From a virus (lineage: Duplodnaviria; Heunggongvirae; Uroviricota; Caudoviricetes): a stretch of DNA of 64,000 nucleotides. Positions within the stretch are counted from its first letter, which is position 1, and the number at the start of each line of letters is the position of its first letter. A model generated the notes under the pieces. The model saw only the letters and a program-made list of their open reading frames with translations, did no database searches and was not told the DNA's origin. Shown here piece after piece: positions 17,569-61,725 of this stretch. Location: positions 12,183-76,182 of IMG/VR virus record IMGVR_UViG_3300032070_000001. One strand, given 5' to 3'. Position numbers and translations under genes: made by a program.

Positions 17569-17955
<387 letters not shown>

Positions 17956-18020
17956 GGGTCTCTCCGCAAAGGTTGAAAGTGAACAGCAACAACTGCCGCA
18001 AGTGGCAAACCAATCGGCTC

Positions 18021-18233: not shown

Positions 18234-18259
18234 TCGTTCCTGCCCGTCGATTGGGCCGC

Positions 18260-18681: not shown

Positions 18682-18714
18682 GGGCCGACTCCTGTTTAAG
18701 GCGATGGGGCAGAC

Positions 18715-18912: not shown

Positions 18913-18923
18913 GTGATCCCCTT

Positions 18924-19097: not shown

Positions 19098-19106
19098 TGC
19101 CGCCTC

Positions 19107-20423: not shown

Positions 20424-20535
20424 GATCGTATTACCTTCGCCGAGAAGAAGATGTAAAAGAGGCCGGATGGCGCTGCCCCGTCGCCACCCGGCGCATACAG
20501 TCGGTCATAAGAGGCAGAGTTCCCAGAAGACCGAC

Positions 20536-42700: not shown

Positions 42701-43602
42701 AAGTCAATCGTGAGGTTGAACTGCGCCGCGCGCAACCCCGCCATATCCGACGACTCACCGTAGGCATTCAATGCCCCGGTCAACAGTTGCACGGATGCAG
42801 ATAGGTCTTGAACCGTGACCTTGGCTAACATATTAGCGGCCATAAGAATGTTCGCCCGATCTGCTGCCGTGACGAACTGGTCAGAAAGCGTCTGATACTG
42901 GGCCTCTGCCACACGCGAAAGAGGCTGATTGAAGGCATCCGACAATTTCCGAACATCGTCTGCAATCGCACCGAACGTGCGGCTTGGATCAAGCGCCCGA
43001 ATCTCACCGATACGCTTTGAAAAATCCAGAAAACCGCCAATGGCTTCTTTGATACCATCGCGCAAGGCACTTATTGTGCGAACAATCGCCTGAGTCACGA
43101 CCACCCTGGTCAGCGTCTCCCAACTAATCGCGAATCCCTGGGCTGCTTTCCCGGCATCGTCAAGCTTCTGACGCGCCTGTTCAAGCGCCCGCGTATGCGT
43201 GTCCTGACTAATCGCGCCTTTCTGATTCAACGCATCGAGGCGGGCGACTTGAGTAGTGTACTGCTCCAGCGGAGTGCGCGTCTGGTCAAAGATGTGAGCC
43301 GCCTCCTGAGCATCCTTTGACATCTTCGCCGCACCGCTCGCGCCAACGCCTGCACCCGCACCTGCGCCTGATACATTGGCGCTTCCCAATTTGTTTAGCG
43401 AAGCCAAGGTCGCATCCGCTTGGGCAGCCATCTGCTTCAACGCTGACACGACGCTTCCGGCCTCTTTGTTGAAAGAGTCGAAACGGGAGGTAATAGTCGT
43501 CAGTTGCGATCCAAAGGAATTGAACGCCTTATCCAGGCGCGCTAACTCATCAAGCGCCTGGGTGGCATTGAACTCAAGGCTTTGGCGAATGTCGTCAGGC
43601 AT
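39736..43602 (-). CDS. tail tape measure protein
   Basis: 1288 aa, dominated by coiled-coil/Ala-rich segments, and placed after the frameshifted chaperone pair. Confidence 0.8.
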   Translation of the reverse strand: MPDDIRQSLEFNATQALDELARLDKAFNSFGSQLTTITSRFDSFNKEAGSVVSALKQMAAQADATLASLNKLGSANVSGAGAGAGVGASGAAKMSKDAQEAAHIFDQTRTPLEQYTTQVARLDALNQKGAISQDTHTRALEQARQKLDDAGKAAQGFAISWETLTRVVVTQAIVRTISALRDGIKEAIGGFLDFSKRIGEIRALDPSRTFGAIADDVRKLSDAFNQPLSRVAEAQYQTLSDQFVTAADRANILMAANMLAKVTVQDLSASVQLLTGALNAYGESSDMAGLRAAQFNLTIDLGRLRTEELGAALSRTQGIAHELGLSMEELDASLIAITIGGVKASEAATQLRSMMAALLKPSDGMKAAFQSLRVESGQAAVQTWGFQGALQQVISTTDGAANSIAKLFPNTRALPGALRLAGSGAEKYKEAMDKLRQVDVDTLRKKVTEFTSTDAERLTAELNRISNYFKTEFGRDAVHSILGIVDALGGSGGLVPVLRIVVGQLGSVVASAAGLGLVGLAFAAMKMQAALAGTAITGVRAGLLAIVGIPLAQSFGQLLGNWLGQRAGAAQTALREERDLDIKANQEKTAAAIREADRKNEEIVRGLRRYLADAQKIYFQDADNFKAAITIEEKVAKLALDRIMQSRQKMTSELFAASETAAKKAAEIPGEIAGIQAEIADRAFQTSIQRFNDPEAQFRAVAARAKKLADQAASIQAGAKDADQQKMADSAWRRADGLAKQAEQLARQTEDVNLQRQALALLDEIDGRRIGSLQAQALLQQKLSQDLEARAFQAERHNAELERQREAIEATLSVVAKDAEGNLRRKTSGELEADLAKSGGLIEKFAADLKKFGKEDFAKTFMGDTRAFASMRRELERQLTGVSIQTLVAAPEAIARLNEQLQAGIKAIRLEAPVIAKIEQVTGLDLLADGLTKVVDAYEKKLAGATVRGLQQSQNQRDLEANQRAGQGAFDKWMQERFDTSNRPGGAAERIQKEAEQHLEATFTLLKRLNEAEKITTEDMRQLDVLFSVADKAASSAFGRFAAARVTEELSTMGDAVLKRFELLKKQQAEVEVGKGQPSKIELDAIQGEIQALGQKTTAERSTTTAAKAGEEIAADTVDVIGDQTRAVNGTGDAVRRLVDYWRDVRVAAKGAAAASAAAASAASGGGGGDGDVPSMDITGLEDFFDFVAGGAVRHFDRGGFAPRGVDMVPAMLAPNEFVMSAQATRRWYSQLVAMNAGIAPSFRSQGGQVANVTVGDIHINEAVEPRQTAREVIKSLKRELRRGVSVF

Positions 43603-44948: not shown

Positions 44949-46067
44949 TCACCCGCGGATGATTTCCGGTTCAGTCACGTTGCACTTGCCAGTGACCGCA
45001 ATCGTCGCACCCTTGATGTCGTAGTCCCGCTTCTCGCTGCGAAAATCCGGAAACGTCCACGTTTCCGATTGCCCAACGCAAGGCGGCACATATTCCACCA
45101 CGACATCCACGGCATACGGTTCGCAGGCATCGACGGACGAAGTAATCCACTCGGCTGCCCCGCCGATTCCCTTCACAGCGTCAACAGGGGTGATGACGTT
45201 ATCCGTTCCCGTTTTGACGTGCTCAAACGTGAAGTTCATATTCACGTCCATAGGCGTCTCGTCACCTTCACGCACAGTATCCAGAACCCCACGATCCTTA
45301 TCGTAGGTGTAGGCGTTCGCCTCGGAATACTTGAGGTCCCCATCACCGATCTTGACCTCAATCTGCTGCGGCAGGAAGGTAATAACAGCATCGGTGCTGT
45401 AACTACCGGGACCGAGCGGTGTATTGATGAATGTGATCGCCGTGGTGACAGCAGACGTAGCCGGCAAGGCTCCTCCCTGTGTCGTGACAACCGTAATCTC
45501 CGTCGTCGGCGTCAGGCTTGTACCATTGGCCACAATAAGAGCTTGAGGCTGGAAACCAAGAGCACCCTTGAACTCGACCACCCACGGGCTTCCATCATGC
45601 GTCACGTCCCAGTCATCCACGGTGTAGCCGTCATCCAACGCCACCAAAGCTGTCTTGAGAGTAGCCGCCGTGATATCAAAAGCCAAGGCCGAAGTCGTAT
45701 GGCCACCCCACGTCAAGGTAAAGGTGCCACCTGTTGCCGAAGTCGTAATCGTCTGTTTCGCATTTGCACCGGCACCGCCTTGCGTGCGGCCAGTCACGAT
45801 ATGAACAGCATCCGGGTCCGTCTCACCGGCGATGGTGAAACGCGCACCTAACGGAATCTTCTGTGTGAACCCACCAACCGCCGGTGGAATACTCACACTT
45901 GTCACAAGGCAACCGGAGTCATTCTCGACCACCGGAGCCGGCACTGCCGTTTTATTCCCAACGGCCGTGCAAGGATAGACAGCAGGGTTAGCCCCCAGGC
46001 CGTCCTTAATGTAAATCGTGCAGTTCTTCAGTTCGATTCTCGCCATGTGTTTGTCTCCACTTGGCAA
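44949..46067 (-). CDS. major tail protein with Ig-like module
   Basis: 372 aa, position before the chaperones. Internal module GGTFTLTWGGHTTSALAFDITAATLKTALVAL...WVVEFKG. Start probably at M8. Confidence 0.55.
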   Translation of the reverse strand: MPSGDKHMARIELKNCTIYIKDGLGANPAVYPCTAVGNKTAVPAPVVENDSGCLVTSVSIPPAVGGFTQKIPLGARFTIAGETDPDAVHIVTGRTQGGAGANAKQTITTSATGGTFTLTWGGHTTSALAFDITAATLKTALVALDDGYTVDDWDVTHDGSPWVVEFKGALGFQPQALIVANGTSLTPTTEITVVTTQGGALPATSAVTTAITFINTPLGPGSYSTDAVITFLPQQIEVKIGDGDLKYSEANAYTYDKDRGVLDTVREGDETPMDVNMNFTFEHVKTGTDNVITPVDAVKGIGGAAEWITSSVDACEPYAVDVVVEYVPPCVGQSETWTFPDFRSEKRDYDIKGATIAVTGKCNVTEPEIIRG

Positions 46068-47492: not shown

Positions 47493-48926
47493 TTAGCCGA
47501 GAACCGGCACGAGCAGCCCGCTGTCGAGAACCGCCACACCCGCGAGGATGTCGCAGTTGACGACCACGCCGCCCGCGTTGATGTCGTACTGCATCAAGAC
47601 GCGCATCCCGATCCCGTTGTAGGGGACCACGGCGGCCATGACGCCCATCCGGGTGTCCGGGAGGGCGAGGGGGCGAGTGACCAGGGCCAAGGCGTCCCGA
47701 TGGAACGCCAGGTTCAGCGAACCCTTCGGCCCGGGATAAGCTTCAGCCGTACTCAGCACCTTTGCCTCCAACGGCCGATCCAAGAGGACCGTGGTGTGAG
47801 TCGAATCAACCACCGTCACCTCGATGATCGTGTAGGTATGACGGCCAAGCAGCGTGGCACCGAAGGCAAGCAACTGGCCCACCTGCAGGTACTTGTAGGC
47901 CGTATGCGTGAACGTCATAGCCTTACTGTAACCAGCGGCCCGATCCGTGGCTTCGTTCGCGCACTTCTTGTAATGCGTAACCACGGCCGTGGCCCCAGTA
48001 CCGTACTTGAGCGGCTCATTCAGGATAACATGGCCCGTAGTCGCGTCAAGCATCCAGGTCGGCTGGTCATTACCAGCAATGTTGAGAAACTCACCAGCGG
48101 AACCGGTGATAACGATGTCGATGTCGCCAGCGTACCCGGCCGCCTGAGCATCACTATTGACTGCCAAAAGTTCGTTCTCAGTCCCAGTCAGAACGCAGTT
48201 GACGTTCTGGCACATGAAGGTATCGAAGCCGAGGACGCGGCCGAGGGTCGCATTCTCCAGCGCCGTCCCGCCGTCGCCGCGCTCATTAGCCTTCAGGAAG
48301 ATAGGAGTCTTCAGCATGGCGGTCTCGGCTGTGGGAGCCATGACCAACCGACGACCATCCATCGGGGCCTTGTTAACGTTCAGACGCTCACGGGCGTCCA
48401 AAACGTAATCCTGAGCCGTCGTGGAATCGAGGCCACCTAGCTTGCCGACACGAGCCGCCGGATCGCCGAGGTAAGCGTGAATCCGCCCCAGGAGGGAACG
48501 GTCGATGCCTCGCGCGATGGCCTGCATCGCCGGCCGGAGGTAGATGTTCGTGAGTTCCTGGAAGGACTTGCTGCCTTCACCATCACGGATCACGAAAGAC
48601 TTGTAGAACCACTGGTCCAAAGGCACCGCCACATTGCTGGCGATGGCGTCATCCTGCACCAGAGTCGTGCCGTCCGTTTTCCGGCTGATCTTGAACTCGC
48701 CGGGCTTCCGAGTGTTCACGACATCACCAAACTTGGCAACGGCATTCTCGAAGTCACGATGGACGAGGCTGGCCATGACCATGTTCTCTTCGAGGATGGC
48801 CAGACCCTCCTGCGCCCAAAGTTCGGGCACGTAGGCGTCCAGAAGATTGCCGTCACCATTCGCGTAGCAGGCCACGAAGGGCCGAGAGAGGTAGAGGGAA
48901 TTCATGATGTTCACTCCGATTTTCAA
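47493..48926 (-). CDS. major capsid protein (putative)
   Basis: 477 aa, immediately after the scaffold gene and followed by a strong terminator. Confidence 0.6.
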   Translation of the reverse strand: MKIGVNIMNSLYLSRPFVACYANGDGNLLDAYVPELWAQEGLAILEENMVMASLVHRDFENAVAKFGDVVNTRKPGEFKISRKTDGTTLVQDDAIASNVAVPLDQWFYKSFVIRDGEGSKSFQELTNIYLRPAMQAIARGIDRSLLGRIHAYLGDPAARVGKLGGLDSTTAQDYVLDARERLNVNKAPMDGRRLVMAPTAETAMLKTPIFLKANERGDGGTALENATLGRVLGFDTFMCQNVNCVLTGTENELLAVNSDAQAAGYAGDIDIVITGSAGEFLNIAGNDQPTWMLDATTGHVILNEPLKYGTGATAVVTHYKKCANEATDRAAGYSKAMTFTHTAYKYLQVGQLLAFGATLLGRHTYTIIEVTVVDSTHTTVLLDRPLEAKVLSTAEAYPGPKGSLNLAFHRDALALVTRPLALPDTRMGVMAAVVPYNGIGMRVLMQYDINAGGVVVNCDILAGVAVLDSGLLVPVLG

Positions 48927-49000: not shown

Positions 49001-49852
49001 TTAGCGGCGCTTGGGCGCGAGACCGAGCAATTCAGGGTTCTTGGCTCGAATCTCTCGATACTGTGGGGGAGTCAACTTCCGCACGTCGATCTTGCCGCCT
49101 TGACCCGGCGTGAGGCCGCCGGTGACCGAACTGGAACCGATCCCCGAGACAACATTGGAACGAAACAGGTTGCCCCATTGCTCGGGTAATTCTTTCATAC
49201 GTTGGACCGCTTCATCCGGGGTCCGTGAGCACTTCACCATTTCCCCAGTCGTCGCATCCTTATCCAGCATCTTGACCATCGGCGTGTATGTGCCGATGGG
49301 CTTGCCCGTCGTGGGGTCCACGTCAGGCACCAGTTCCGTCTGACTGCGCAGTTGTGTCACAATCTGTCCCGGGCTGAATGCCTCATGCTTCACCGCGGCA
49401 TCCTGCAACGACCTGTCGATGGTGGAATCCCGGAAAAGGGCTTCCCAGACCTGTGCCTTCTTCTCGGCCTCAATCACCTTCTGCTGGTACGCCTCTTCCA
49501 ACTGGCGCTTTTCCAACTGCAACTGCTGCTCCTTCGTGCGCAACTGGCCCTGAACCGTTTCCAAATTGTCTTGCAGAGCCTTACGATCACTCTCAGTAAG
49601 CGTATTGCTCTCCAAAGCTCTTTGCAGCTTGGTCTCGACCTCTTGGAACTTCATCTGATGCTTGCGACGGTCGACGGCAAGAGCATCGTTGAACTTCTTC
49701 TGCTGGTCGGGCGTGAATCCTTCAGGCGGTCGCACGTCACTATCAGCGGCAGCGGCAGCAGCGGCAGCGGCAGCGGCAGCGGCGGCAGTAGCGGCATCCT
49801 CACCCTCGAAACATGACACCCACGGACGCGACAAATACAAAACGCTGAACAT
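49001..49852 (-). CDS. scaffolding protein (coiled-coil)
   Basis: Central heptad-rich region QEVETKLQRALESN...LQLEKRQLEEAYQQKVIEAEKK. Poly-Ala tract near the N-terminus. Confidence 0.55.
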   Translation of the reverse strand: MFSVLYLSRPWVSCFEGEDAATAAAAAAAAAAAAAADSDVRPPEGFTPDQQKKFNDALAVDRRKHQMKFQEVETKLQRALESNTLTESDRKALQDNLETVQGQLRTKEQQLQLEKRQLEEAYQQKVIEAEKKAQVWEALFRDSTIDRSLQDAAVKHEAFSPGQIVTQLRSQTELVPDVDPTTGKPIGTYTPMVKMLDKDATTGEMVKCSRTPDEAVQRMKELPEQWGNLFRSNVVSGIGSSSVTGGLTPGQGGKIDVRKLTPPQYREIRAKNPELLGLAPKRR

Positions 49853-50060: not shown

Positions 50061-50768
50061 CTACACTTGAGCAGCACCAATAAGTGCTGGATAAATGGCG
50101 TCGTTATGCTCAGCAAGTGCAATTTCCAGCGCAATAGCCTTGATTGTCTCCGCACTGAAACGTCGCTCACTGACAGATGCGCCCTGAACCAATGCCGAAG
50201 GGACAACACCTTCCGCCGGCACCGTACCACGAAGGATGCCAAGGCGATCAACCAAAATCGCATACCCGAGCCGGTCGGCTTGACCCTCCGTTGTGACCGT
50301 GATCGCGCCTGCCGAACCGCCGCCCGTCAATTTGGCACCGTCGATCACCGTCAAAGCATGATTCGCTTCCTCGACCGATGCACCGTCGAACGTCAACGTA
50401 ACAGGAGTTGAGGTAAGAGGACCACCGGCAACAGAAATGTCACCGTTCGTCCAACCAACAACACCAGCCGACGTGGCAGCGACATCAATCGCAGTTTCAA
50501 TTGTTGCCGCATTGGCATTATACGCAATGTCGCCCGTCGTAAAGGTCTCGCCACTAACCAAAGTAACTGTTAGTGCAAAGGTACCGCCATCAACAGTTTC
50601 GACATAGATGGCGATTGACTGAACCTCATCGACAGCCTGCAAAGCGGCAGACAATTCAAAATCATGAACCGCCATGAGTTCACGATAGGCGCGCCGATCC
50701 AATGGATCAATCGGAGGCGTAGTATCAATTGTCACCGCCGCATTGAGAAAATCCGCAATAACACCCAT
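50061..50768 (-). CDS. Ig-like-module protein flanked by the 88-bp direct repeats
   Basis: Contains a diverged copy of the shared module (GGTFALTVTLVSGETFTTGDIAYNANAATIETAIDVA). Start taken at M27 so that copy B stays outside. The tabulated start is 50846. Confidence 0.45.
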   Translation of the reverse strand: MGVIADFLNAAVTIDTTPPIDPLDRRAYRELMAVHDFELSAALQAVDEVQSIAIYVETVDGGTFALTVTLVSGETFTTGDIAYNANAATIETAIDVAATSAGVVGWTNGDISVAGGPLTSTPVTLTFDGASVEEANHALTVIDGAKLTGGGSAGAITVTTEGQADRLGYAILVDRLGILRGTVPAEGVVPSALVQGASVSERRFSAETIKAIALEIALAEHNDAIYPALIGAAQV

Positions 50769-50782
50769 TTCAGATATCTCCG

Positions 50783-51322
50783 CTAGCTCATACGTGAAAG
50801 TTTCAAAACATCCGAGTCGCGCAAGAAAGGCTTGAGCAAGCGCCACGCGACAGAACTCGGCACCATGTTGATGATGTGCTCGATAGGCAGTTGCGACCGC
50901 TCGTAGACCGTCTTCACCGCCCCGTACCCCATCGAACTGACGGCCAGATTCTCTAGTTCCAATTCCGGGTCCTTGCCGTCCAGTAGCGCGTAGGCGATCT
51001 CGTACTCCGCGATGCGAATCTCCGTAGGCACCTCAGTATCACTGCCCCTGGGAAACTCCAAGAGTTGATCCGCCTCGGCCACTCGAATCTGCTCTTGCGT
51101 AGCAGATGGGTTCGCCTGCAAGAGAAGATAGACGCTGTTCTTGTAGCCTTTGTAGTTCAGAGTGTCGATGATGGTGCGCGCGGCAACCAGTGCTTTACCA
51201 CGATCCGCTGCTGTAGCATTCGTCCACGCCGTCTCATGAAGTCGGGTGACAAAATACTCATCCGCCTCCTCCAGATCACCGTAAACATCATCGTAAAGTG
51301 TCATTGCGTCACCGTCACCCAA
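50783..51322 (-). CDS. hypothetical head-associated protein
   Basis: 179 aa. Its 3' end is part of repeat copy B. Confidence 0.45.
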   Translation of the reverse strand: MGDGDAMTLYDDVYGDLEEADEYFVTRLHETAWTNATAADRGKALVAARTIIDTLNYKGYKNSVYLLLQANPSATQEQIRVAEADQLLEFPRGSDTEVPTEIRIAEYEIAYALLDGKDPELELENLAVSSMGYGAVKTVYERSQLPIEHIINMVPSSVAWRLLKPFLRDSDVLKLSRMS

Positions 51323-51328
51323 GCCCCA

Positions 51329-52624
51329 TCAAAACTTGTTAAAATGCCGCGAGAGGGGGAAATCCTCAAACACATTCCACTGACCACGAATCCTTAAAAT
51401 CGGTGGATGATTGAATGGAATCCCGTATATCCGACCATTTGGCGCTAAGACACCCCCTGTCCACTTCTCTTCAGCACCGTAGCTCCCAATAGTCGTTACG
51501 GTATCTGACACAGGATCAATTACAAGAATTGATGTGTCACGATAGGGAATACCATAGATGCGTCCATCAGGAGCCAAAACCCCACCTGCCCACTTATTTG
51601 ATGCTGTTCCGACATCACCGAAAGTTGTCGCTGTATCTGTGGTGGGATCAATCTTTAAGACCGATGCACTACTGGCCGGGATACCATAGATGCAACCATT
51701 CGGAGCCAAAACCCCACCATGCCACTTGTATGTTGCCGTCCCAAGATCGCCAAAAAGCGTAGTTGTATCTGTGGCAGGATCAATCTTTAACACGTATGCC
51801 CGACGGTCTGGAATCCCATAGATACAACCATTTGGTGCTAGTACGCCGCCCTTCCACTTCGTTAGCGATGTGCCAAGACTTCCGAATGTTGAATACGTGT
51901 CATTCGTTGGATTGATCTTTAAGATAGTCGCAATGCCAGTTGGAATCCCGTAGATCATTCCATTTGGAGCTAAGACACAACCCCACCACTTACTTCCGGT
52001 AGCAAAACTTCCGAATGTTGATACCGTGTCATTTGCCGGATTGATCCTCAGTATTGTAGACCCACCAAATGGCACAGAATAAATCATACCATTCGGAGCT
52101 AAAACACCGCCCGCCCACGCAGTCCCCTGCGTAGAGACAACACCTCCAAACATGGTCGCAGTGTTGGTAGTAGGATCAATTTTCAATATCGTTGGAGCCG
52201 TCAGACATTGATATGGTATCCCGTAGATACAGCCATTTGGTGCTAAAACGCCTCCAATCCAATGCCGTAAGTTGGCGGTATCAGGATTTGCAACAGTATC
52301 ATGAGCCGCATCATTGGGCACCCATCGTTGCAAAATCGACAACGCTTGAATTATTGCCAATCCATTGTTGCTGTTCTGCTCCCACTCGGGAAAACGAGCA
52401 ACATCCAAGAGATCGGCAACTCGAAGTTGTTGCATACCGCTGCCAATACCGGTATAAATATAGGCATTGTATGCCAATCGCTCTGGCCAAGTCACTTGAC
52501 GTAGACGACCACTCTCTGAGATAATCGGTTTTCGGGCCGCCATGACTCCAACATCCAGAATATCAGCAGTCTTCAACTGTTGAAGTCTACTGTTCACCAA
52601 TACAATAGGATGACGAGTAGCCAT
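51329..52624 (-). CDS. seven-bladed beta-propeller repeat protein
   Basis: Seven ~45-aa repeats of W.GGVLAPNG.IYGIP....IL.I.P..DT..TFG. The N-terminus has duplicated LQQLKTADILDV/MQQLRVADLLDV. Confidence 0.65.
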   Translation of the reverse strand: MATRHPIVLVNSRLQQLKTADILDVGVMAARKPIISESGRLRQVTWPERLAYNAYIYTGIGSGMQQLRVADLLDVARFPEWEQNSNNGLAIIQALSILQRWVPNDAAHDTVANPDTANLRHWIGGVLAPNGCIYGIPYQCLTAPTILKIDPTTNTATMFGGVVSTQGTAWAGGVLAPNGMIYSVPFGGSTILRINPANDTVSTFGSFATGSKWWGCVLAPNGMIYGIPTGIATILKINPTNDTYSTFGSLGTSLTKWKGGVLAPNGCIYGIPDRRAYVLKIDPATDTTTLFGDLGTATYKWHGGVLAPNGCIYGIPASSASVLKIDPTTDTATTFGDVGTASNKWAGGVLAPDGRIYGIPYRDTSILVIDPVSDTVTTIGSYGAEEKWTGGVLAPNGRIYGIPFNHPPILRIRGQWNVFEDFPLSRHFNKF

Positions 52625-52636
52625 TCTTACACCTAC

Positions 52637-53620
52637 CTATATCTCAATTGGTGTCTGAATGTTAATGACTAATCGCGTGGTATCCATTGCTACACCAAGC
52701 GATGCCAGAATCTCTCCGACTTCTGTTGGCGGTGTTACTGTCAACTTTCCAGCCGTTGTTGACAAGTAGTAGCGAGCGCCTTCAGTCAAACCACCAGTTT
52801 CGTCAGTTACAGCGTCCCATTCGTCGGTAGTTGCAACCAAGACGCCTGCATTCTGAATAGCACCATCCAAGCCATCTGCAATGGAGGCGTCTTCAACAAA
52901 TCCGATAACATCGGCTGTCAAAACAGCACTTGCCTCAGCGAGTGCCACTTTTCCGTTTGCCTTTGCATAGACAGGTTGGCATCTATTGATCGCGCTACCT
53001 TGGTCATTTGTGGCAGTAAACAATACACCAGTACCAGTGGGGCCTGTTGCACCGACTTCACCTTGCGGCCCAACCTCGCCCTGGATGCCTTGCGGCCCAA
53101 CCTCGCCCTGGATGCCTTGCGGCCCAACCTCGCCCTGGATGCCTTGCGGCCCAACCTCGCCCTGGATGCCTTGCAGCCCGACTTCGCCTCGCGGCCCGAC
53201 TTCACCTTGCAGCCCGACTTCGCCTCGCGGCCCGACTTCACCTTGCGGCCCGACTTCACCTTGCGGCCCGACTTCACCTTGCGGCCCGACTTCACCTTGC
53301 GGCCCGACTTCACCCGGCAGACCAGCAACGCCTTGTGGCCCAATATCCCCTTTGCCGGCGTAGGACCCAGGTTTTCCTTGCAGACCAATGGGTCCACGGT
53401 CGCCTTTCGGACCTCGTTCACCGCATGGTCCCGATGGTCCCGGCGGTCCCGGCGGTCCTGGCGGTCCTACGCCCCCCCCATCAGGTCCTAGTAACCCTTG
53501 CAGTCCACGATCTCCTTTGGGTCCGCGATCTCCTTTCGGACCTCTTTCACCACGTGGCCCCGGCGGTCCAATTAAAGATGCCATATCAACACGCAATCCA
53601 GGAAAACTGACTGCCCGCAC
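52637..53620 (-). CDS. collagen-like (G-X-Y) fibre protein with globular C-terminal domain
   Basis: About 190 aa of GxY triplets ([13 protein letters not shown]...), encoded by 27-bp and 18-bp perfect tandem repeats. Start may be M13 (53584). Confidence 0.8.
53060..53325. repeat. perfect tandem repeats (27-bp x4, 18-bp x5) inside the collagen-like gene
   Basis: ccttgcggcccaacctcgccctggatg x4, then cttgcggcccgacttcac x5. Confidence 0.9.
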
Positions 53621-54497
53621 TGGCGTCCGTCTTCGTAATGGTGATTGTGAAGCCAGCGTCGCCTTTCTGCGTCTCTGTGATTGTCACCGTCGTACTACCG
53701 CCTACAAGCAACGATCCATCACCCGTCATTGCGTCGACATTCATAAGAGCGAGTGCGCCCTTGAACTCGACCACCCAATCGACGCTCGGACCAGAACCAC
53801 CTGTCACTTCCACATCGCCAACCGCGATGTTGGACAAATCCTCCAATGCGGTCTGAACGGCAGCGGCCGTTGCGTTATAAGCAATGGCCGCAGTCGTCTG
53901 TCCGCTATAAGTCAACGTGAAAGTCCCAGACGAAGTGGCATCGTCGATAGCGACCGTCTGCTTCTCGTTGATGCCCCCATCAGTGCCGATCATCAAAGAC
54001 ATATCCGTCTTCGCCAATGTGCCTTGAAACTCCACAGTATACGGACCGCCCGCATCGCCGCTGACAGCAACATTACCCACCCCGATATTCGGCAGCGCCT
54101 CCAATACGTCTTCCACCGTTCCCGCTGTCGCCTCAACAGCAATCGGATCAGTCATCTCGCCATCCAGCGTCAAGGTAAACGTCTCACCGACGATATCACC
54201 TGAAAGCGTGACGACCTGCTGTGAATTGCCAGCCGGCGTAGCAATCATGTACACCGTACTGATGTCCTCGACCTGTACCTCCAACTCTTCGCCGGCTGGA
54301 AGCGGATAACCATCGACCACCGTAACACCGACACGACCGACATAGATCACGATACCATTGGCTGTTGCCGCGCGTACCCGTACACCTTTAAGCACGATTT
54401 CAGGTGCGTAGCCTGAAACAACAAGAGGCCGCGCCACAGCATCCGCCCCACCATGCCCCACCCAAAACTGTTTAACTGCAGTTCGCACTATGTCCAT
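53586..54497 (-). CDS. protein with two Ig-like modules
   Basis: The two copies are [44 protein letters not shown] and [45 protein letters not shown]. 53650-53860 is nucleotide-similar to 37840-38060. Confidence 0.55.
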
Positions 54498-54507: not shown

Positions 54508-56304
54508 TCACACTAGTTTTGGTTTTCCGGCACCGCGCACATGCGAAGCCGTAGTGTCTTGCAACGTTGTGTCGCGGCTAGCCGTCTTCTCATCTTCCCC
54601 GGCGTTGGGATTCGCGGACAAATCCGAGACACCGCGCGCCCCAGGATCACCCGCACTCCTGCCCCGAACCACCCCTTGCCCCTCGGCAATGCGCTTTACG
54701 CGCTCCAAATGATCGACTCGCGCCTTGAGATATTCGTCACCATCGAATCCCAAGGCAACCGAACCAACTTGCTCACCGAGCAACCCCGCTTGAACCGCTT
54801 GAATGATCGTCTGCGGATCACTATTCGTGTAGTGGGCGGCGTCGATTTCGTGGTTGATCTCATCCAGGTCGCTGACGCTAATCTTCCCACCAAGAATCGC
54901 CTGCACGATCCCCTTTGCAAACTCGCGCTTCACCTTGCGGCCCGGAATCTGATTCATCAATTTCGACAAGTCGCCCGCTTCCTTGATCCGGTCAGCATCC
55001 GTCTTGAGACTATACCGATCCGGATACTTGATCGTCGGAACTTGTCGCTTGGAAATTGTCCGCTCTTCGTAGGCCGCCCAAAACTCAGCAACCTGTCGCT
55101 CGCCGCTCTCCAGCAAAAGACCGATGTAACTCAACCCAGCTTCAAGGCCCTGGTTGTCCATCGCCTTTGATTCTGCCGAAGCCCGCACTGCCAAGCTCGA
55201 CACAGCCAGATTGACCAATTCGCGGATGTCTCCCTTGAGTTTGGCCTGCAATTCCAGGCTCGCTCTTAACGGCTCCGACGAGGGATTGATGAAGGCCGGT
55301 TGCACCATCCCTTTATCAAAGGCCCGACCATGCGTGGCACCAACCTTGATGTCCGTCTCTGCTGCCCCCTGGCCACCAGTCGTTGCGGTGCCGTCAGCCG
55401 TGGCGGCAACCTTCAAGTGAGCCCCCACCGCCCGCAGATCCTTCTGTTCGACGTAGAAGGGGAAGTTAGACCCCAGAGCGTAGCTCACGTCGCTCGAACC
55501 CAGGTTCAAAAGCGCAATCTGATGTTGGGCCACATCCTTTATCAGGCTCCCACCGATGTCCAGCATCACGAACGGAATCCGCGTCAGTTCCAACATGATC
55601 GGTCCCGCCGGCTGGCTAAACTGATCGACCGGTGTGCCCTCCAAATTGTAGAACTGCAGGTTAACCTTTTTTGTCTCTTCGTCGATCCAAAGGTAGCGAT
55701 ACCGCTGCACCGAGATCGTCGGCAAGAAGTACGCCTGGTCGTATTGCATCACCGTGTCGCGGAGTAAGACGGCCTGGAACTCGGACGGAGCCTCGGGCTT
55801 CATGCAAGTCCAGGAAAGAATGTCCTCGATGTCGTACTTGTACAGATACGGCGCGACATTCCCTATATCCGCCAAGGTTGCCGTTGCCGAGACCGGCGGG
55901 GCATCCACGTACACACCCACCCGCCCCATGACCAACAATTCCGTCAGAACTTTGACGCCGATGAAGGCGTTCATCGTCGAACCCCGACGATCCACACCCA
56001 GATTCAAGCCGTTAACCGCACTCTGATACGTTGAACTGCCGTCCTTCCGCGTAATATCTCTCATACGCTGATAGATGGAGTTGCGAATGTCGTTGATGGC
56101 CGCACCCGCGAATTTCGGGATCGGCGTCATCGCCTTTCGCCGGATGAACTCCGTCTGGTCTTCCCTCGCGGAAAACTTCTCCAGGTAGACTTCCCGAAAC
56201 TCGTCCCCACCCCCGTAGGTCAGACGCCACTTACACCAATCGGTCATTCCGGAGAGGTAGCCCGGATACCGACTGTCAACCAAGTTGATTACCGCGTCGG
56301 GCAT
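54508..56304 (-). CDS. portal protein (putative)
   Basis: 598 aa, immediately downstream of the large terminase. Confidence 0.6.
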   Translation of the reverse strand: MPDAVINLVDSRYPGYLSGMTDWCKWRLTYGGGDEFREVYLEKFSAREDQTEFIRRKAMTPIPKFAGAAINDIRNSIYQRMRDITRKDGSSTYQSAVNGLNLGVDRRGSTMNAFIGVKVLTELLVMGRVGVYVDAPPVSATATLADIGNVAPYLYKYDIEDILSWTCMKPEAPSEFQAVLLRDTVMQYDQAYFLPTISVQRYRYLWIDEETKKVNLQFYNLEGTPVDQFSQPAGPIMLELTRIPFVMLDIGGSLIKDVAQHQIALLNLGSSDVSYALGSNFPFYVEQKDLRAVGAHLKVAATADGTATTGGQGAAETDIKVGATHGRAFDKGMVQPAFINPSSEPLRASLELQAKLKGDIRELVNLAVSSLAVRASAESKAMDNQGLEAGLSYIGLLLESGERQVAEFWAAYEERTISKRQVPTIKYPDRYSLKTDADRIKEAGDLSKLMNQIPGRKVKREFAKGIVQAILGGKISVSDLDEINHEIDAAHYTNSDPQTIIQAVQAGLLGEQVGSVALGFDGDEYLKARVDHLERVKRIAEGQGVVRGRSAGDPGARGVSDLSANPNAGEDEKTASRDTTLQDTTASHVRGAGKPKLV

Positions 56305-56319: not shown

Positions 56320-57981
56320 TCAGATGTCTTGGCCGCCCGGTGACACCGGAGCCAATGCCAAGCCAATATCAGCATAGACCAGGCTGTGAGCGTAGTGATC
56401 CGGTCCCGTGTTTACGTAGGTAGCGACCAAGTTCTTGTGGTCATCCTTCTCATAAGTCCGCACCAGGTTCTTGACGTGCTCGCGGTATTCCAACGAGATG
56501 TCCCGAGGCAGCAAGATGCGCGACGGCTTCGTCTTGAAGCGACCCAGGCTGCAACTGATCCAACTCGTGCGATCTACGATAGCGAACGGTGCCCCTGTCT
56601 CTTCTTCCTGAATAGCGATTTCCTTGGCCGTCTGCCCCCGCCGGTATCGCGTCAGCCATACGTAGCCCCGAAACTTCCGGGCAAAGCGGCGGGCGTCATT
56701 CACATTCGGGTCGGCATCCACCACAGCAGCCAGGACTTGCCACTCCCGCATCAGGTCCCCGAGGTAATCCCAACCATCCTCGGGAAAGTGCCCGAACCAC
56801 AGCAGCTTGGCGATAGCCGCCGAATTGATGTCGCTCCCCGGCGGCCGATCAAACAACCACTCCACCACTGAGATGTAGCCCGTCTTCCCCTGGTCCGCCC
56901 CCATCGTTATCAGCCGCGTGCCGCCTACCTGGGGTCGCGGATCGTTGATCGTATGTCCCTTGAGGCAGTTCTCCAGCATCGCATCCGTGACCTGGGCACC
57001 CTCGCCGATGAAGGGAATCCCGATCTTGCTGCAATGAAACTCCGTTGCCGCCGCCTCGTCGCCTAGACCTTGGTGGTAGGCAATCACCAACTCACCAGGC
57101 GTCACCGTGGATGAGTAAAGCTGGTTGATGTAGAAGCTCCGCCTCTCGTCCACCGAAACCTGTAGCTCGGTCGCCTTCCACTGGCCACCGGCAAGGAACT
57201 CAGGCTTCGCCGCATGTTCCAGCCGGTGCTTGCACTCCTTGCATTTAAGAAAGGACTGCTTGCAGCGTGGATCGTTGACCGACTCCCCGATGATCTCGAC
57301 GCAATCCGGCCAGATCAGTTCCGTTTGCCGGCCGCAATGCGGACACTGGAAGTAAAAGTGCTCTTGAGTGCCCGTTAGGTATAGTTTGTGGATGCCGTAC
57401 TTTGGCACGGTCGGGGTGGAGATCGCCAGGATGTGCTTTTCCACCTGGCCACTCAGGCGCTCCAACGCCAGCCACACCGCATGAATGTCCATCTCATCCA
57501 GTTCGTCCAAGATCAACTCGGACACGGGGATGGACTTCAGGTTGCTGTCACCACGGCTCCCACGGATGTACAGGACATTGCGGCCCGTCGATTTGAGCCC
57601 TACCGTGTTCGTATCGACGAACAACCCCTTGAGATAATCGCTCAGCTTCAGGGCCGTCGTAAACCGAGCCTTGGAAAAGTCGCTCGCGTTAATCGACGTG
57701 GGCAGAACGTAGAGCACGTCCCGCTTCGACTGATCGAGCACGTAAAAGGCCCGGTTGATTCCGGTCTCCGTGACGCCCATCTGGGCGGCCTTCATGGCGA
57801 TGGTCCAAGCCGCCTTACTGTCGTGAATCTCGCGGCACCACGGATGCCACAGGAAGCTGTAGTTTCCCTCAAATGGTGCCCCCATCACCCGGCGATACTC
57901 AGCCCACCGGCTGCAAGACGTAAGCGTCTTGCTTTTAAGCCCCTCGGTAATGGTGGCTTTCAGGTCCGCGAGGAGGCTCAT
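56320..57981 (-). CDS. terminase large subunit
   Basis: 553 aa. N-terminal ATPase-like region with acidic LILDELDEMD box. First gene of the structural operon. Confidence 0.75.
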   Translation of the reverse strand: MSLLADLKATITEGLKSKTLTSCSRWAEYRRVMGAPFEGNYSFLWHPWCREIHDSKAAWTIAMKAAQMGVTETGINRAFYVLDQSKRDVLYVLPTSINASDFSKARFTTALKLSDYLKGLFVDTNTVGLKSTGRNVLYIRGSRGDSNLKSIPVSELILDELDEMDIHAVWLALERLSGQVEKHILAISTPTVPKYGIHKLYLTGTQEHFYFQCPHCGRQTELIWPDCVEIIGESVNDPRCKQSFLKCKECKHRLEHAAKPEFLAGGQWKATELQVSVDERRSFYINQLYSSTVTPGELVIAYHQGLGDEAAATEFHCSKIGIPFIGEGAQVTDAMLENCLKGHTINDPRPQVGGTRLITMGADQGKTGYISVVEWLFDRPPGSDINSAAIAKLLWFGHFPEDGWDYLGDLMREWQVLAAVVDADPNVNDARRFARKFRGYVWLTRYRRGQTAKEIAIQEEETGAPFAIVDRTSWISCSLGRFKTKPSRILLPRDISLEYREHVKNLVRTYEKDDHKNLVATYVNTGPDHYAHSLVYADIGLALAPVSPGGQDI

Positions 57982-58378: not shown

Positions 58379-58750
58379 TCAATGATGCACTCTCAAGAGC
58401 ATAGCCACAACGACATCAATGTTGTTGGTCCGCACCACTGGTTCTCCAGACACAGAGACAATGAACATCGGAACCGCGCCAACGTTGTATCGTCTTGCCA
58501 ACTCGGGATGTATGTCGATGTCCACGATCTGCACCTCCACCCCAGTCGCCTGAAGCTCCAGCAAACGTAGTTTGGCCTTCTGGCACGGAACACACCAAGT
58601 TGCAGTAAATGCGACGATTTTCGCTCGATACGGGCATGGGGCAGGTGGTTGCACAGATGGCGATGTCTCGCAACCCGCGATCAAAACCAGGGCACCCAAC
58701 AATGCCGCTAGCGGCAGGATAACAGACCGAAGAAAGGCTCGATATCTCAT
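58379..58750 (-). CDS. exported thioredoxin-fold lipoprotein (CxxC)
   Basis: Signal and lipobox LVLIAGC. Active-site-like TATWCVPCQ. Confidence 0.65.
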   Translation of the reverse strand: MRYRAFLRSVILPLAALLGALVLIAGCETSPSVQPPAPCPYRAKIVAFTATWCVPCQKAKLRLLELQATGVEVQIVDIDIHPELARRYNVGAVPMFIVSVSGEPVVRTNNIDVVVAMLLRVHH

Positions 58751-59360: not shown

Positions 59361-60056
59361 TTACTTCACGGCGGGATGCAGCTTCGCGTACAACTGGCGG
59401 CCGTAGCCGACCGAAAGACCACCCAGGAAACCGACCACACACAACATGGCCAGGACCCACGGTGGCAAAACACTTTCCGGCTGCGGCTGCGGCTGCGGCT
59501 CGACAATCGGAGCCTCGCCATCATCAATCGGCTGGGTATCAGGGTCCGGTTGCGGACCTGGGCTAGGTTGCGGGCAACGCCGCCACGGAATACAACGGAT
59601 ACCCTGAGCGCTATGCACGCCGCTGGCAATCGCGCCATACAGACCCTCGACCGTCATCGGAATGTTCTTCCCAGCCGCCTCGTAGACCACTTCACCGTTG
59701 GCCTTCTGCACTCGCACGGTCGGAAGGCCCTTGACATTCGAGGCGTACCGTTCCTGATACATGGGATGACCGGTCGTGACCGGGCAGAAGCGGACCTGGC
59801 TCTTGAGGGCCTTGAGGCTGGTATTGCTGTCGAACCACCCCAGCAGCCGAAGGTAGGCCGTATCGTTGGCGCTGCCCACGACGCTGATGTACCACTTGCC
59901 CTGGTCGTTCGGCAGATTGATGACACGCTCTTCGGCGAGCACGCCGTTGACCGTAGCGGTGTCCGCGAAACACGGAACCGCCGCAGCCAAGAGGCAGAGA
60001 GTCAAGAGACTCAGGAGACTCAGGAGACTCAGGAGACTCAGGAGGATGCGATTCAT
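59361..60056 (-). CDS. secreted protein with (LLS)n signal region and C-terminal TM anchor
   Basis: The N-terminal LLSLLSLLSLLSLLTLCLLAAAVP is encoded by a 9-bp tandem repeat gagactcag x4 (60003-60041). Pro-rich linker, then VLPPWVLAMLCVVGFLGGLSVGYG. Confidence 0.5.
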   Translation of the reverse strand: MNRILLSLLSLLSLLSLLTLCLLAAAVPCFADTATVNGVLAEERVINLPNDQGKWYISVVGSANDTAYLRLLGWFDSNTSLKALKSQVRFCPVTTGHPMYQERYASNVKGLPTVRVQKANGEVVYEAAGKNIPMTVEGLYGAIASGVHSAQGIRCIPWRRCPQPSPGPQPDPDTQPIDDGEAPIVEPQPQPQPESVLPPWVLAMLCVVGFLGGLSVGYGRQLYAKLHPAVK

Positions 60057-60098: not shown

Positions 60099-60662
60099 TT
60101 ACTGCGGCAGGGGTGCGGCCGGCGTGTAGACCGGCGTGACCGCCCACCCGTAACTGGCCTTCCACTCGGCGATCAATGTTGCCCGAGGAACCCAAATGAA
60201 CTTGGAGACGTTGTTATTGTCGAGGATCGCGGCCCACTGGCTGTCCAAGTGGACCAGGGTGACCATGTGAGCGCCACCCATGATCGTGATCCCGCACCCG
60301 CGCCGGGTTCGACAGGCCCACTTCAGGAACCACACGTCCCCATTCGTGGTGTAGGCGTAACGGATGTTCGCCCGGTCGAGCTTGGCGGCCAGATCATCCG
60401 GCTCCTCGCCGTTGCCGTAGGTCCGCCGCCAGTAGTCCGCCGTCTTGTCTCGGCCCTGCCAGCGGAGGAGGCTAATCATCGTCGCGTGGACGCACGATCC
60501 TTGACGCTGATTGCCGACCCAGTTGCTCTGCCGCAGGGCGAGCGGTAGGTTGACGGTCGGCCGTTCGATCTTGATCGGATGGGTTCCAATCGTCGGAACA
60601 TCGCAGCCAGCCACCAACAAAACCAGTGCAACAAGAATTTGCTTCAAACCGAATTGAGACAT
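60099..60662 (-). CDS. lipoprotein with papain-fold (C39-like) peptidase domain
   Basis: Lipobox LLVAGC. QGSCVHATMISLLRW ... GGAHMVTLVHLD gives a Cys/His arrangement. Confidence 0.5.
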   Translation of the reverse strand: MSQFGLKQILVALVLLVAGCDVPTIGTHPIKIERPTVNLPLALRQSNWVGNQRQGSCVHATMISLLRWQGRDKTADYWRRTYGNGEEPDDLAAKLDRANIRYAYTTNGDVWFLKWACRTRRGCGITIMGGAHMVTLVHLDSQWAAILDNNNVSKFIWVPRATLIAEWKASYGWAVTPVYTPAAPLPQ

Positions 60663-61123
60663 GCAAATTCTCCAAAATGTTTCAATGCGGCCTCGTTATA
60701 GGCCCTTGCAGCATCACGCGAGTCGTCAAAAAGCCCTAAGTATCGCTGACGCCTGTGCAACCCGATATAGGCTCGCCACTTCCCGAGTTGTTTGTGCCAG
60801 GAAACACCCTTGAAACCCGATGCGCTATCCCTCCGCCGTCTCTGGTTTGCGGCATTCTGTCTATCAGTTGCCATCCGCAAGTTGCTTCGACAGTTATTAC
60901 ACGTATCGCGGTTGGCATGGTCAATCTTCAGATTTCCACACTTCAGGCCGCACCTTTCGGCGACGACACGGTGCATCCACACAATCTTGCGGACTTCACC
61001 TCGCTGACGCCGCGCGGCGTATTGCCCATCCACCGCAGCGTGCCACTTCCATTGCATCAGGTACTCGTAATCACAGTCGTCTACCAGTGCCTCCCTGCCT
61101 TTGGTCAACGGAATGGCTTTCAC
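60644..61123 (-). CDS. HNH-AP2 homing endonuclease (copy 3)
   Basis: GTG start (RC of 61121-61123) overlapping the upstream TAG, with GGAGG 9 nt upstream. VKAIPLTKG..., IDHANRDTCNNCRSNLR, SGFKGVSWHKQLGKWRAYIGLHRRQRYLGLFDDSRDAARAYNEAALKHFGEFA. Tabulated ORF 60644..61252 is N-extended. Confidence 0.75.
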   Translation of the reverse strand: MKAIPLTKGREALVDDCDYEYLMQWKWHAAVDGQYAARRQRGEVRKIVWMHRVVAERCGLKCGNLKIDHANRDTCNNCRSNLRMATDRQNAANQRRRRDSASGFKGVSWHKQLGKWRAYIGLHRRQRYLGLFDDSRDAARAYNEAALKHFGEFACLNSV

Positions 61124-61725
61124 TATTTCAACCTCCGAGGCTTTCGCAAGATTTTCTTGCGTCGTTCGACCCGCACCAAGCGATTCGGATTCCAACGGCT
61201 CACGTTGTCCGTCTGAAGAATACCGAGGGTTGCATGGGCGGCAGCACACCATTCCGAACAGAAGATCGAAGTAAGGTTATCAGGATGTAGCAGCGATTCG
61301 ATCCATGAAAGACCCACGCCAGCTACCCGAATCGCGCCCAACTTGTCGTAAGGAGTTCCAATCGTCCCCATCAAGAACTCGGTGAGGCGGCTGTCTTCGT
61401 CCGGGTACAAGGACCGGTAAAGCGGATAGTGCCAAACCTTGCCCTTGTAGATGTTGACGACGTGCTCCAGTTGATGGGCTTGGGTTCCCCAGAACACTTC
61501 ACCCGTGATCTCGCACGGCAGATCGTCGAGTTGCGTAGACTCGAATAGCATGAGGCGTCCGTCGTCCGCGTGCCCCATGATGCCAACGTGACCGATGCTC
61601 CAGAACGGAATGCCGTAGGTGGCGATATTAACCAGGGCACTGACCAAACAGTGACCCGAGAATCCGATGATGTCACCGGCCTTGAGTTCGTCGGGCAGGA
61701 ACGGGTTTTCCCGGTGACGGAACAT
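61123..61725 (-). CDS. permuted papain-fold (NlpC/P60-like) peptidase, candidate cell-wall hydrolase
   Basis: GDIIGFSGHCLV / GHVGIMGH (His region) precedes FCSEWCAAAH (Cys). 200 aa. Confidence 0.5.
   Translation of the reverse strand: MFRHRENPFLPDELKAGDIIGFSGHCLVSALVNIATYGIPFWSIGHVGIMGHADDGRLMLFESTQLDDLPCEITGEVFWGTQAHQLEHVVNIYKGKVWHYPLYRSLYPDEDSRLTEFLMGTIGTPYDKLGAIRVAGVGLSWIESLLHPDNLTSIFCSEWCAAAHATLGILQTDNVSRWNPNRLVRVERRKKILRKPRRLK

Follow-up and report, generated by a model that had tools for sequence, protein, structure and literature searches.

The closest relative with experimental data to the fibre proposed here is the neck fibre of the Anabaena myophage A-1(L), which is composed of gp82, gp81 and gp80 (PDB 8KEG) and whose recombinant trimers self-assemble head to tail, the N-terminal hairpins of one unit docking on the preceding bead (PMC10966104). 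Canonical proteins in which a Dec-arm precedes a beta-tulip bind the capsid mainly through that N-terminal arm (PMC7602432), and the extension domains of Bxb1 are external and dispensable (PMC8704799). Elements of all three systems come together in a three-gene insert within a 64,000-nt stretch (hereafter the window) of IMG/VR record IMGVR_UViG_3300032070_000001, a member of the Caudoviricetes. Computation established the identities of the domains, their homologies, a rule of gene order and how variable the surrounding interval is. The reading we favour, at about even confidence, is that these are late, optional structural genes of a temperate Planctomycetota siphophage, which would encode a plug-and-socket accessory fibre and a separate surface protein.

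The genes lie between those for the portal and the head-tail adaptor Ad1 (Table 1). A sequence-only reading of the window had placed three repetitive ORFs between portal and scaffold, and these are real, lie at the positions it gave and are on the minus strand. It had also counted four extra genes there; five were found, one of which is the conserved Ad1 rather than an extra repetitive gene, and another, g261, carries a single module. Sixty related loci share the order TerL, portal, slot, Ad1, scaffold, MCP, and across them the slot between portal and Ad1 is hypervariable, holding 0-8 co-directional genes in 24 bp to 9 kb. The portal has 80 relatives in IMG/VR at 56-85% identity and Ad1 is kept in the relatives, while g261 is present in only a few (L030, L013 and L076). 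Foreign DNA also enters the slot, in the form of TnpB/IS605 elements (L075, L101) and a glycosyltransferase, and in some relatives the slot is empty. The three genes are accordingly read as optional, fibre-like or surface-display virion genes rather than core assembly genes. Within the window the slot genes are packed 1-12 nt apart, and the transcription signals of their own by which morons could be recognised do not exceed chance (3 promoter-like sites against a shuffled expectation of 4.7, and 7 terminator-like sites against 7.0). A signal-peptide-like hydrophobic stretch was not seen at the N-termini by a Kyte-Doolittle screen, which is crude. Relatives are prophages in Planctomycetota MAGs (Thermoguttaceae and Planctomycetaceae), and the hosts are Planctomycetota. 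No close cultured relatives were found, since a tblastn search of 50,697 phage records with the MCP as query gave no hit above 35% identity. Among these Planctomycetota phages, which form a large uncultured family, the portal-adaptor interval is a hot spot of accessory genes.

Table 1. Features of the locus, in nucleotide positions of the window (aa, residues of the protein concerned).
Feature	Position	Strand	Details
Portal protein	54508-56304	-	phrog_145, 5.8e-29; conserved upstream border of variable slot
g303, 303 aa: small jellyroll core with two inserted alpha/beta display modules	53586-54497	-	ORF list
g303 core, aa 1-91 and 272-303	54225-54497 and 53589-53684	-	
g303 module 1, aa 92-174	53976-54224	-	HMM E 7e-38
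g303 module 2, aa 178-262	53712-53966	-	HMM E 3e-36
Collagen-like putative fibre 'initiator': five residues (MASLI), then a collagen stalk, ending in a beta-tulip	52637-53584	-	ORF list; Pfam Collagen 1.6e-26
G-X-Y region	53027-53569	-	59 triplets (177 aa) in runs of 11, 12 and 36; two short breaks
18-bp tandem array, x 8.1, encoding GEVGPQ	53169-53314		TRF
27-bp tandem array, x 4.7, encoding QGIQGEVGP	53061-53188		TRF
collC, beta-tulip candidate 'socket' domain, aa 199-327 (327-aa numbering)	52640-53026	-	
Putative fibre 'terminator', 431 aa: N-terminal plug, ~95-aa linker, predicted seven-bladed DUF6923 propeller	51329-52624	-	
N-terminal plug (arm) motif, 26 aa, MATRHPIVLVNSRLQQLKTADILDVG	52547-52624	-	weaker second copy at aa 28-43
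Propeller blades, aa 122-431	51332-52261	-	seven W.GGVLAPNG.IYGIP units, 43-48 aa spacing
Head-tail adaptor Ad1	50783-51322	-	phrog_477, 6.6e-14; Pfam DnaT_2, 1.7e-7; conserved downstream border of variable slot
g261, optional protein with one Bxb1-type module (aa 75-166)	50061-50846	-	module HMM 1.8e-6; between Ad1 and scaffold gene
Scaffold	49001-49852		phrog_206; downstream of the three ORFs
P22-type coat protein (MCP)	47493-48926		downstream of the three ORFs
Putative tail tube protein	44949-46067		Bxb1-type module internal, aa 104-183

The middle gene of the three encodes a collagen-like protein (92.2 bits against Pfam PF01391, cut-off 27.2). Its ORF yields 327 aa from a GTG at 53620 (52637-53620) or 315 aa from an ATG at 53584, which sits one base past the stop codon of g303 and is the likelier start. 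Five residues precede the first G-X-Y triplet, which leaves the anchor of the protein itself unexplained and counts against the fibre model. The collagen stretch had been put at about 190 aa, slightly above the count in Table 1, and the 27-bp and 18-bp tandem arrays beneath it, described as perfect, are present and far above chance but matched at 97% and 92%, respectively (TRF). Rapid variation in repeat length had been predicted from these arrays, and a comparison between two assemblies of this phage fits: there are four 27-bp units in the window versus two in contig L081, a 54-bp (18-aa) in-frame difference by protein alignment. Contig L082 breaks off within the tandem array, which calls for caution over copy number.

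The C-terminal domain of this protein, collC, was modelled as a monomer and has the fold of a beta-tulip with a mixed alpha/beta subdomain, the reference proteins being lambda gpD, P74-26 gp87, HFTV1, Pam3 cement, TW1 gp56 and the phi29 head fibre gp8.5. Its nearest sequence kin with experimental data are the neck-fibre beads of A-1(L), not capsid cement. Alignment with hhalign gave a probability of 96.6% for gp81 (E 6.3e-10) and of 67.8% for gp82C (E 4.9e-5), and phmmer gave 1.3e-4 for homology to beads of the A-1(L) type, whereas no sequence-level match to the solved cement proteins was found.

Downstream of the collagen gene, the 431-aa product is by its sequence a seven-bladed DUF6923 beta-propeller (4.3e-12, 46.8 bits, cut-off 27), and the seven blades that had been read in it were all recovered. 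It has 1918 homologues, many of them multidomain and some with LamG-type (PF13385) and other Pfam domains, and a search for a solved homologue found none; DUF6923 propellers are common among cellular proteins. An HMM of the plug motif at its N-terminus, built from unrelated database bead proteins, was run against all six-frame ORFs of the window and matched the propeller ORF alone (E 8.5e-9; next 2.2). Across 17 loci, the plug opens the gene right after one ending in collC in 25/27 cases, mostly at a spacing of 3-28 nt, with a 3-nt overlap in one and 272 nt in two. Between the motif and the N-termini of A-1(L) gp81 and gp80 no resemblance in sequence could be detected, and docking by the plug is for that reason only inferred. 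Moreover, relatives resembling L042 have a propeller with neither plug nor collagen gene, which counts against a plug-and-socket model.

The first of the three gene products, g303, has a jellyroll core that accommodates two repeated modules between its strands. They had been taken for Ig-like modules; the repetition stands, but the fold was rejected because each module contains a helix (AF2 model, pLDDT 91.8) and so departs from the all-beta Ig, FN3 and BIG folds. In both sequence and fold they are homologous to the domain found in Bxb1 gp23, gp14 and gp19. The corresponding HMM finds five copies in four window proteins, those outside g303 being on the tail tube, a tail-tip protein and g261, and orthologues of g303 carry from 0 to 5 copies. 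In L103 and L104, which are distant relatives, the core gene is likewise found between portal and Ad1, and in L101 and L102 it lies directly downstream of a 781-aa gene, a putative portal. This jellyroll family was previously unannotated and, when grouped at 50% identity, falls into 200 or more clusters. In cultured phages the module alone finds matches and the core finds none, and against PHROG and PDB the core has marginal matches only (DUF3992, E 0.047; no PHROG). We suggest that g303 is a surface protein separate from the fibre, its core belonging to a jellyroll family that may be ancestral to the slot and that would, in this phage, display two Bxb1-type modules.

Proteins assembled from the same parts recur in the relatives and fall into three classes: initiators with collagen and collC without a plug, extenders with a plug and collC, and terminators without collC, in which the plug is joined to a propeller, to collagen and a C-terminal domain, or to a 735-aa protein of unidentified fold. 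Stand-alone proteins of plug and tulip measure 155-190 aa, and some loci carry three or four tulip/plug proteins in series. Fibres of relatives also carry CBM_5_12 modules, with a GT1 glycosyltransferase adjoining, which points to an adhesin character.

Under the plug-and-socket reading, the collagen protein would, by analogy with the beta-tulip family, trimerise via its C-terminal beta-tulip and give a triple-helical stalk. At 0.286 nm per residue, its ~180 residues would span ~50 nm. Into the socket offered by the beta-tulip trimer would fit the N-terminal plug of the protein encoded next, whose seven-bladed propeller would form a distal head that probably binds glycans. Such an arrangement would follow the initiator, extender and terminator logic of A-1(L) gp82, gp81 and gp80, with a collagen-tulip initiator, a plug-propeller terminator and the extender absent. 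The fibre may attach to the virion near the head or neck, and its proposed function is extra, dispensable adhesion to polysaccharide-rich surfaces. Most likely, parts already known from phages are combined here in a new way.

A capsid location, as the sequence-only reading had suggested, appears rather unlikely to us. Here the beta-tulip trimer would sit at three-fold or quasi-three-fold sites of the capsid (cf. lambda gpD, P74-26 Dec and the phi29 gp8.5 base) with the collagen pointing outward, and the plug would act as a Dec-arm in trans, clamping the trimer and tethering three propellers at the surface; the fibre would have the opposite polarity to that of phi29. By fold, collC is indeed best matched by capsid-bound cement proteins, with the fold of the phi29 head-fibre base also matched, and the plug and tulip proteins of relatives resemble canonical Dec-arm and beta-tulip proteins in size and layout. 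A paralogue in L085 matches phrog_19421 'head decoration' (9e-5), and a collagen-like spike on a capsid has a precedent in SPP1 gp12. Weak matches to XM1_gp53_minor_capsid, Phage_cement and Phage_cement_2 point the same way, but the last of these (4.7e-4, 20.9 bits) falls under the curated gathering cut-off of 24. The collagen protein in the window also has no N-terminal Dec-arm of its own, MASLI being followed by collagen, and it is the following gene product that carries the arm-like motif. On a capsid, the propeller as putative binding head would be at the base and the tip of the fibre would be a bare N-terminus, and three or four serial tulip/plug proteins are hard to place on one type of capsid site. 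A-1(L) gp81, moreover, makes free chains, not capsid lattices. What survives of the earlier suggestion is that the genes are optional and fibre-like or for display; position, which had been its evidence for the capsid, does not show a capsid location, because in the related phage L085/L086 the same beta-tulip/plug/collagen cassette closes the tail module, after tail-tip genes and a Band_7 gene, and in L087, an unplaced contig, a protein that weakly matches tape-measure and tail-lysin families is followed ~2.6 kb downstream by a bead gene. Placement in the tail region of relatives had been named as what would refute the suggestion, and it is seen in L085/L086.

These placements also speak for side fibres on the tail or baseplate that are merely encoded in the head-gene region, a reading we consider improbable. 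The collagen part matches many PHROGs labelled tail fibre or collagen-like minor tail protein (e.g. phrog_5073, 2.7e-43), and for the terminator of L091 there is a match to phrog_4492 'tail fiber protein' (7.5e-12). However, the matches of the collagen protein are driven by its G-X-Y repeats and the labels are mostly putative. A complete tail-tip module, with a 1004-aa protein among its products, is already encoded in the window, a tail-fibre anchor domain was not found, and the beta-tulip is known from capsid and neck, with a fragment of phi29 gp12 as its sole tail-side match. It is very improbable that the proteins are non-virion cargo ('morons') serving the lysogen or infected cell outside the particle, for example as surface adhesins: the TnpB/IS605 elements and glycosyltransferase accepted by the slot, the cellular DUF6923 propellers and the prophage state of relatives would suit such a role, but tight packing in a late operon, promoter and terminator signals at chance level, N-termini without signal-peptide-like stretches in the crude screen, and a beta-tulip, Bxb1 module and plug known mainly or only from virion proteins (propeller and collagen repeats excepted) argue against it.

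Beyond the plug-and-socket fibre of this phage we venture a wider proposal, with confidence a little short of even: Planctomycetota phages may have made the capsid-cement fold (beta-tulip with N-terminal arm) into a general connector for interchangeable fibre cassettes, shuffled between the portal-adaptor interval and a site closing the tail operon, with the jellyroll as both slot platform and scaffold for domain display. Initiators there would consist of a collagen or CBM stalk and a socket, extenders of plug and socket, and terminators of a plug with a propeller, collagen or other large distal domains. If true, the one bead-chain neck fibre so far characterised by experiment (A-1(L), 2024) would be extended into a widespread modular assembly grammar, and capsid cement proteins and fibre connectors would be linked in evolution. 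The plug-socket pair and the insertion-tolerant core are possible display or engineering handles. General phage biology would be unchanged, since the components are individually known and extra adhesion is ordinary.

Compared with A-1(L), the shared features are a bead domain homologous in sequence to collC and a gene order that would equal the assembly order here as it does there, from plugless initiator through extender to distal binding module; the A-1(L) units are trimeric and docked via the N-terminus of the next unit, as those of the present fibre may be. The present phage differs in having a predicted collagen triple-helix stalk instead of ~14 beads, a putatively distal DUF6923 propeller instead of the carbohydrate-binding module of gp80, and genes between portal and adaptor instead of far from other structural genes, as well as in host phylum and tail type. 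A neck anchor like gp82N is absent from the window ORFs and slot proteins and the window has no gp80-like CBM as a distal gp80 homologue, two absences that count against the favoured reading, and BLASTP found no similarity between Ad1 and the A-1(L) adaptor gp5. Unlike in the cement proteins, the Dec-arm is missing from the chain that carries the tulip, and the collagen fibre is N-terminal to its base, whereas the helical supercoil of phi29 gp8.5 is C-terminal to it. SPP1 gp12, a 6.6-kDa protein, and the collagen-like proteins of E. coli O157 prophages are likewise built on trimeric G-X-Y repeats with a proposed role in surface recognition, the trimer here being predicted. However, SPP1 gp12 binds hexamer centres and has no beta-tulip, whereas the present protein runs to 59 triplets, terminates in a beta-tulip and has a candidate docking partner encoded separately. 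Finally, as in Bxb1 (MCP gp14, tail tube gp19 and tail-tip cage gp23, with Patience gp22 also compared), one module is spread across several virion proteins of a single phage. Nearly all cultured examples are mycobacteriophages, whereas the host here is a planctomycete, and the Bxb1 modules are appended C-terminally to capsid or tube proteins, whereas those of g303 are inserted in a stand-alone jellyroll protein.

Between about 33 and 58 kb of the window, every gene lies on the minus strand, and this block is a siphophage late operon (see table). The sequence-only reading had counted four extra genes between portal and scaffold; there are five, one of which encodes the conserved head-tail adaptor Ad1. 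When the proteins of the window were searched against all related loci by tblastn, the order TerL-portal-X-Ad1-scaffold-MCP was found to be constant, with X, the portal-Ad1 slot, spanning 24 bp (zero genes) to 9 kb (up to eight co-directional genes). The most frequent occupant is a protein of ~199 aa, which comprises the core of the 303-aa protein g303 and one module. Other occupants in relatives are the bare core (~93-107 aa), collagen proteins with G-X-Y runs totalling up to 444 residues, collagens studded with CBM_5_12, large plug-bearing proteins, propellers, a GT1 glycosyltransferase, a 2502-aa protein and a TnpB/IS605 element. Contents this variable mark the slot as a recombination hot spot and the three genes that the window carries there as dispensable accessories. 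TnpB/IS605-type elements lie inside the slot of L075 (7002-8618) and L101 (6493-8083, where a Y1 transposase accompanies TnpB), therefore mobile DNA is also taken up there.

Late operon of the window and selected slot genes of related loci (L-numbers).
Feature	Sequence	Position	Strand	Remarks
gpA-type large terminase	window	56320-57981	-	first in operon order
Portal	window	54508-56304	-	after terminase
g303	window	53586-54497	-	after portal
Collagen-like protein	window	52637-53620	-	after g303
Propeller protein	window	51329-52624	-	after collagen-like protein
Head-tail adaptor Ad1	window	50783-51322	-	after propeller protein
g261 (261 aa)	window	50061-50846	-	after Ad1; Bxb1-type module, aa 75-166
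Scaffold	window	49001-49852	-	after g261
P22-type coat protein	window	47493-48926	-	after scaffold
Head-completion genes	window		-	between coat and putative tail tube
Putative tail tube protein	window	44949-46067	-	after head-completion genes; internal Bxb1-type module, aa 104-183
Chaperone-position genes	window		-	between putative tail tube and tape measure
Tape measure protein	window	39736-43602	-	then tail-tip module
Tail-tip protein	window	37780-39171		C-terminal Bxb1-type module, aa 340-425
GT1-family glycosyltransferase	L003	8949-10136		final slot gene before Ad1
GT1-family glycosyltransferase	L054	13995-15140		final slot gene before Ad1
GT1-family glycosyltransferase	L059	4937-6088		final slot gene before Ad1
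GT1-family glycosyltransferase	L063	11722-12876		final slot gene before Ad1
CBM_5_12-interrupted collagen stalk	L003	6156-7565		
CBM_5_12-interrupted collagen stalk	L007	10108-11601		
CBM_5_12-interrupted collagen stalks	L076	13096-14349 and 17356-18726		

Each interrupted stalk in L003, L007 and L076 carries at least three CBM_5_12 modules, which are of chitin- or cellulose-binding type (Pfam 5e-15 to 3e-24). The slot GT1 genes of collagen-rich relatives match Pfam Glycos_transf_1 (2.5e-20 to 2.9e-18), which suggests that the collagen fibres of these relatives are glycosylated; a GT1 gene is absent from the window. The slot of L071 is filled by the 2502-aa ORF (13344-20852), which is without a Pfam match. 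A sub-lineage whose portals are ~65% identical (L042, L044, L045, L047, L049, L051, L060 and L080) has only a propeller of ~335 aa in the slot, with a Pro-rich C-terminal tail and without the plug motif; collagen and core genes are both missing there. The three slot genes of the window are spaced by 1-12 nt, promoter-like and terminator-like sites around them show no excess over shuffled expectation, and a crude hydropathy screen found no signal-peptide-like hydrophobic stretch at the N-termini of their products. Together, these features argue for late expression alongside the head genes.

Two further contigs carry the same sequence as the window: L081 (ENA metagenome, 102 kb) and L082 (Logan, 3.3 kb). 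Portal relatives were found on 80 IMG/VR contigs and 10 genome contigs. Nine of the latter are Planctomycetota MAGs, and their sizes include 0.44-1.07 Mb, therefore these are prophages. Upstream of the terminase is a thioredoxin-like gene (58379-58750); the distant relative L103 likewise has thioredoxin genes close to its packaging genes, and a contig with fibre genes (L088) has one. In a 231-aa protein (59361-60056), an LLSLLSLL repeat lies in the N-terminal part and a PQP-rich stretch, with a hydrophobic segment behind it, in the C-terminal part; the opposite strand of this DNA reads (QET)n. The product is possibly a membrane protein or one related to lysis. An ORF adjoining the packaging genes (60644-61252) resembles, by eye, an HNH-type endonuclease fused to an AP2-like DNA-binding domain. 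The minus strand carries a single tRNA-Asn (GTT) at 17437-17520.

The collagen region (59 G-X-Y triplets, Pfam Collagen 1.6e-26), the tandem DNA arrays, the ORFs and the seven propeller repeats of the sequence-only reading are all present. The arrays, which had been called perfect, are near-perfect (27 bp x 4.7 copies, 97% match; 18 bp x 8.1 copies, 92% match). For the collagen gene, the ATG at 53584 is the more probable start; it lies one base past the g303 stop codon and leaves only MASLI before the first G-X-Y. Several long overlapping ORFs (125-271 aa) on both strands of this gene (52918-53610), one also spanning much of g303, are regarded as shadow frames of GC-rich repeated sequence rather than genes. 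The window and L081 are 99.8-99.9% identical across 21.3 kb, and the gaps, and apparently the few mismatches, all fall in alignment segments meeting at the tandem array. Four 27-bp units in the window compare with two in L081, an in-frame difference of 54 bp (18 aa) that, from collagen geometry, would change stalk length by about 5 nm. Since contig L082 ends within the array, assembly collapse could be a source of this difference.

Two Ig-like modules had been proposed for g303. Its AlphaFold2 model (27 homologues, pLDDT 91.8) rejects this: residues 1-91 and 272-303 form a single small beta-sandwich, and the modules (aa 92-174 and 178-262), inserted between its strands, are alpha/beta. Five copies of this Bxb1-type module are spread over four window proteins (two in g303; one each in the putative tail tube, tail-tip protein and g261). 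In orthologues of g303 the number of modules ranges from 0 to 5, and at least two different core positions hold them. An exhaustive phmmer search gathered the core family into at least 200 clusters at 50% identity, mostly stand-alone proteins of 90-100 aa. The distant relatives L103 and L104 have a bare core exactly between portal and Ad1, and in L101 and L102 the core gene is directly downstream of a putative portal gene (781 aa). Several core-family members, among them g303 (53586-53600) and most single-module forms of ~199 aa, have a terminal cysteine (...SWIAC); in many others the last residue is V, L or a different one. Cysteines of the collagen protein lie at aa 66 and within INRCQPVY. 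By analogy with Ena pili, disulfide linking of these proteins is conceivable.

The C-terminal 130 residues of the collagen protein (collC; structure model pLDDT 91.0) form a beta-tulip domain, judging by their fold matches, which below the top-ranked include a phi29 gp12 fragment (8.5), TW1 (8.3), the phi29 head-fibre base (8.0) and lambda gpD (5.5). The only solved relative by sequence is the neck fibre of Anabaena phage A-1(L) (PDB 8KEG), with collC aligning to gp81 (hhalign probability 96.6%, E 6.3e-10) and gp82C (E 4.9e-5); a phmmer search of the window ORFs with gp81 gave E 1.3e-4. Stand-alone beta-tulip proteins in the databases open with M..RKPLV..GQ.EQLQ.GD.L. An HMM of this 28-residue opening, the plug motif, was run against all six-frame ORFs of the window and matched the propeller protein alone, at aa 1-26 (E 8.5e-9, against 2.2 for the next best). 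Across 17 loci, 25/27 plug-motif ORFs start shortly past an ORF ending in collC, mostly after 3-28 nt (one 3-nt overlap; two gaps of 272 nt). Relatives encode initiators (stalk and collC, no plug), extenders (plug and collC) and terminators lacking collC (plug with a propeller, with collagen and a C-terminal domain, or with a 735-aa protein); of these classes, the window has only an initiator and a terminator. The propeller itself (seven repeats 43-48 aa apart, Pfam DUF6923 above cut-off) has 1918 domain matches, named sources including Leptospiraceae and Spirochaetota MAGs and the choanoflagellate Salpingoeca. Many of these proteins are multidomain, and in some the propeller is combined with other Pfam domains, such as LamG-type (PF13385). 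No solved homologue of the propeller was found, therefore glycan binding by it is a guess.

Three attachment sites are candidates. Attachment at the neck draws on the homology of collC to A-1(L), the location of the slot between the genes for portal and adaptor, and the constant order within it of core gene before collagen genes. The capsid is a second candidate: collC has the beta-tulip fold, and the head fibre of phi29 is a precedent. Tail attachment is suggested by phage L085/L086, whose tail-tip genes are 34-51% identical to and syntenic with those of the window, and whose cassette (tulip protein, plug-collagen-tulip, two plug-collagen proteins) follows the tail genes; the unplaced contig L087 has a bead gene near a weakly TMP-like protein. 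The proposal that these are surface fibres or decoration outside the tail is partly supported. The initial observation was largely right. A plug-and-socket accessory fibre, together with a jellyroll protein that displays modules, is the model that fits best; both would be encoded in a hypervariable portal-adaptor slot in a family of Planctomycetota prophages.

Virion-wide decoration by one module type, as in the window, is also seen in Bxb1, where the extensions are external, non-essential and immunodominant (PMC8704799). In A-1(L), gp82N anchors gp82 to the neck adaptor, ~14 gp81 beads and a distal gp80 join head to tail beyond it, the N-terminal hairpins of each unit dock on the bead before, and the complex self-assembles in vitro (PMC10966104). 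No gp82N-like anchor was found among window ORFs or slot proteins, and the plug motif has no sequence similarity to the A-1(L) N-termini. The initiator, extender and terminator classes of the relatives mirror gp82, gp81 and gp80. Every component is of a known kind; the novelty lies in their combination, in the apparent connector grammar and in the core family.
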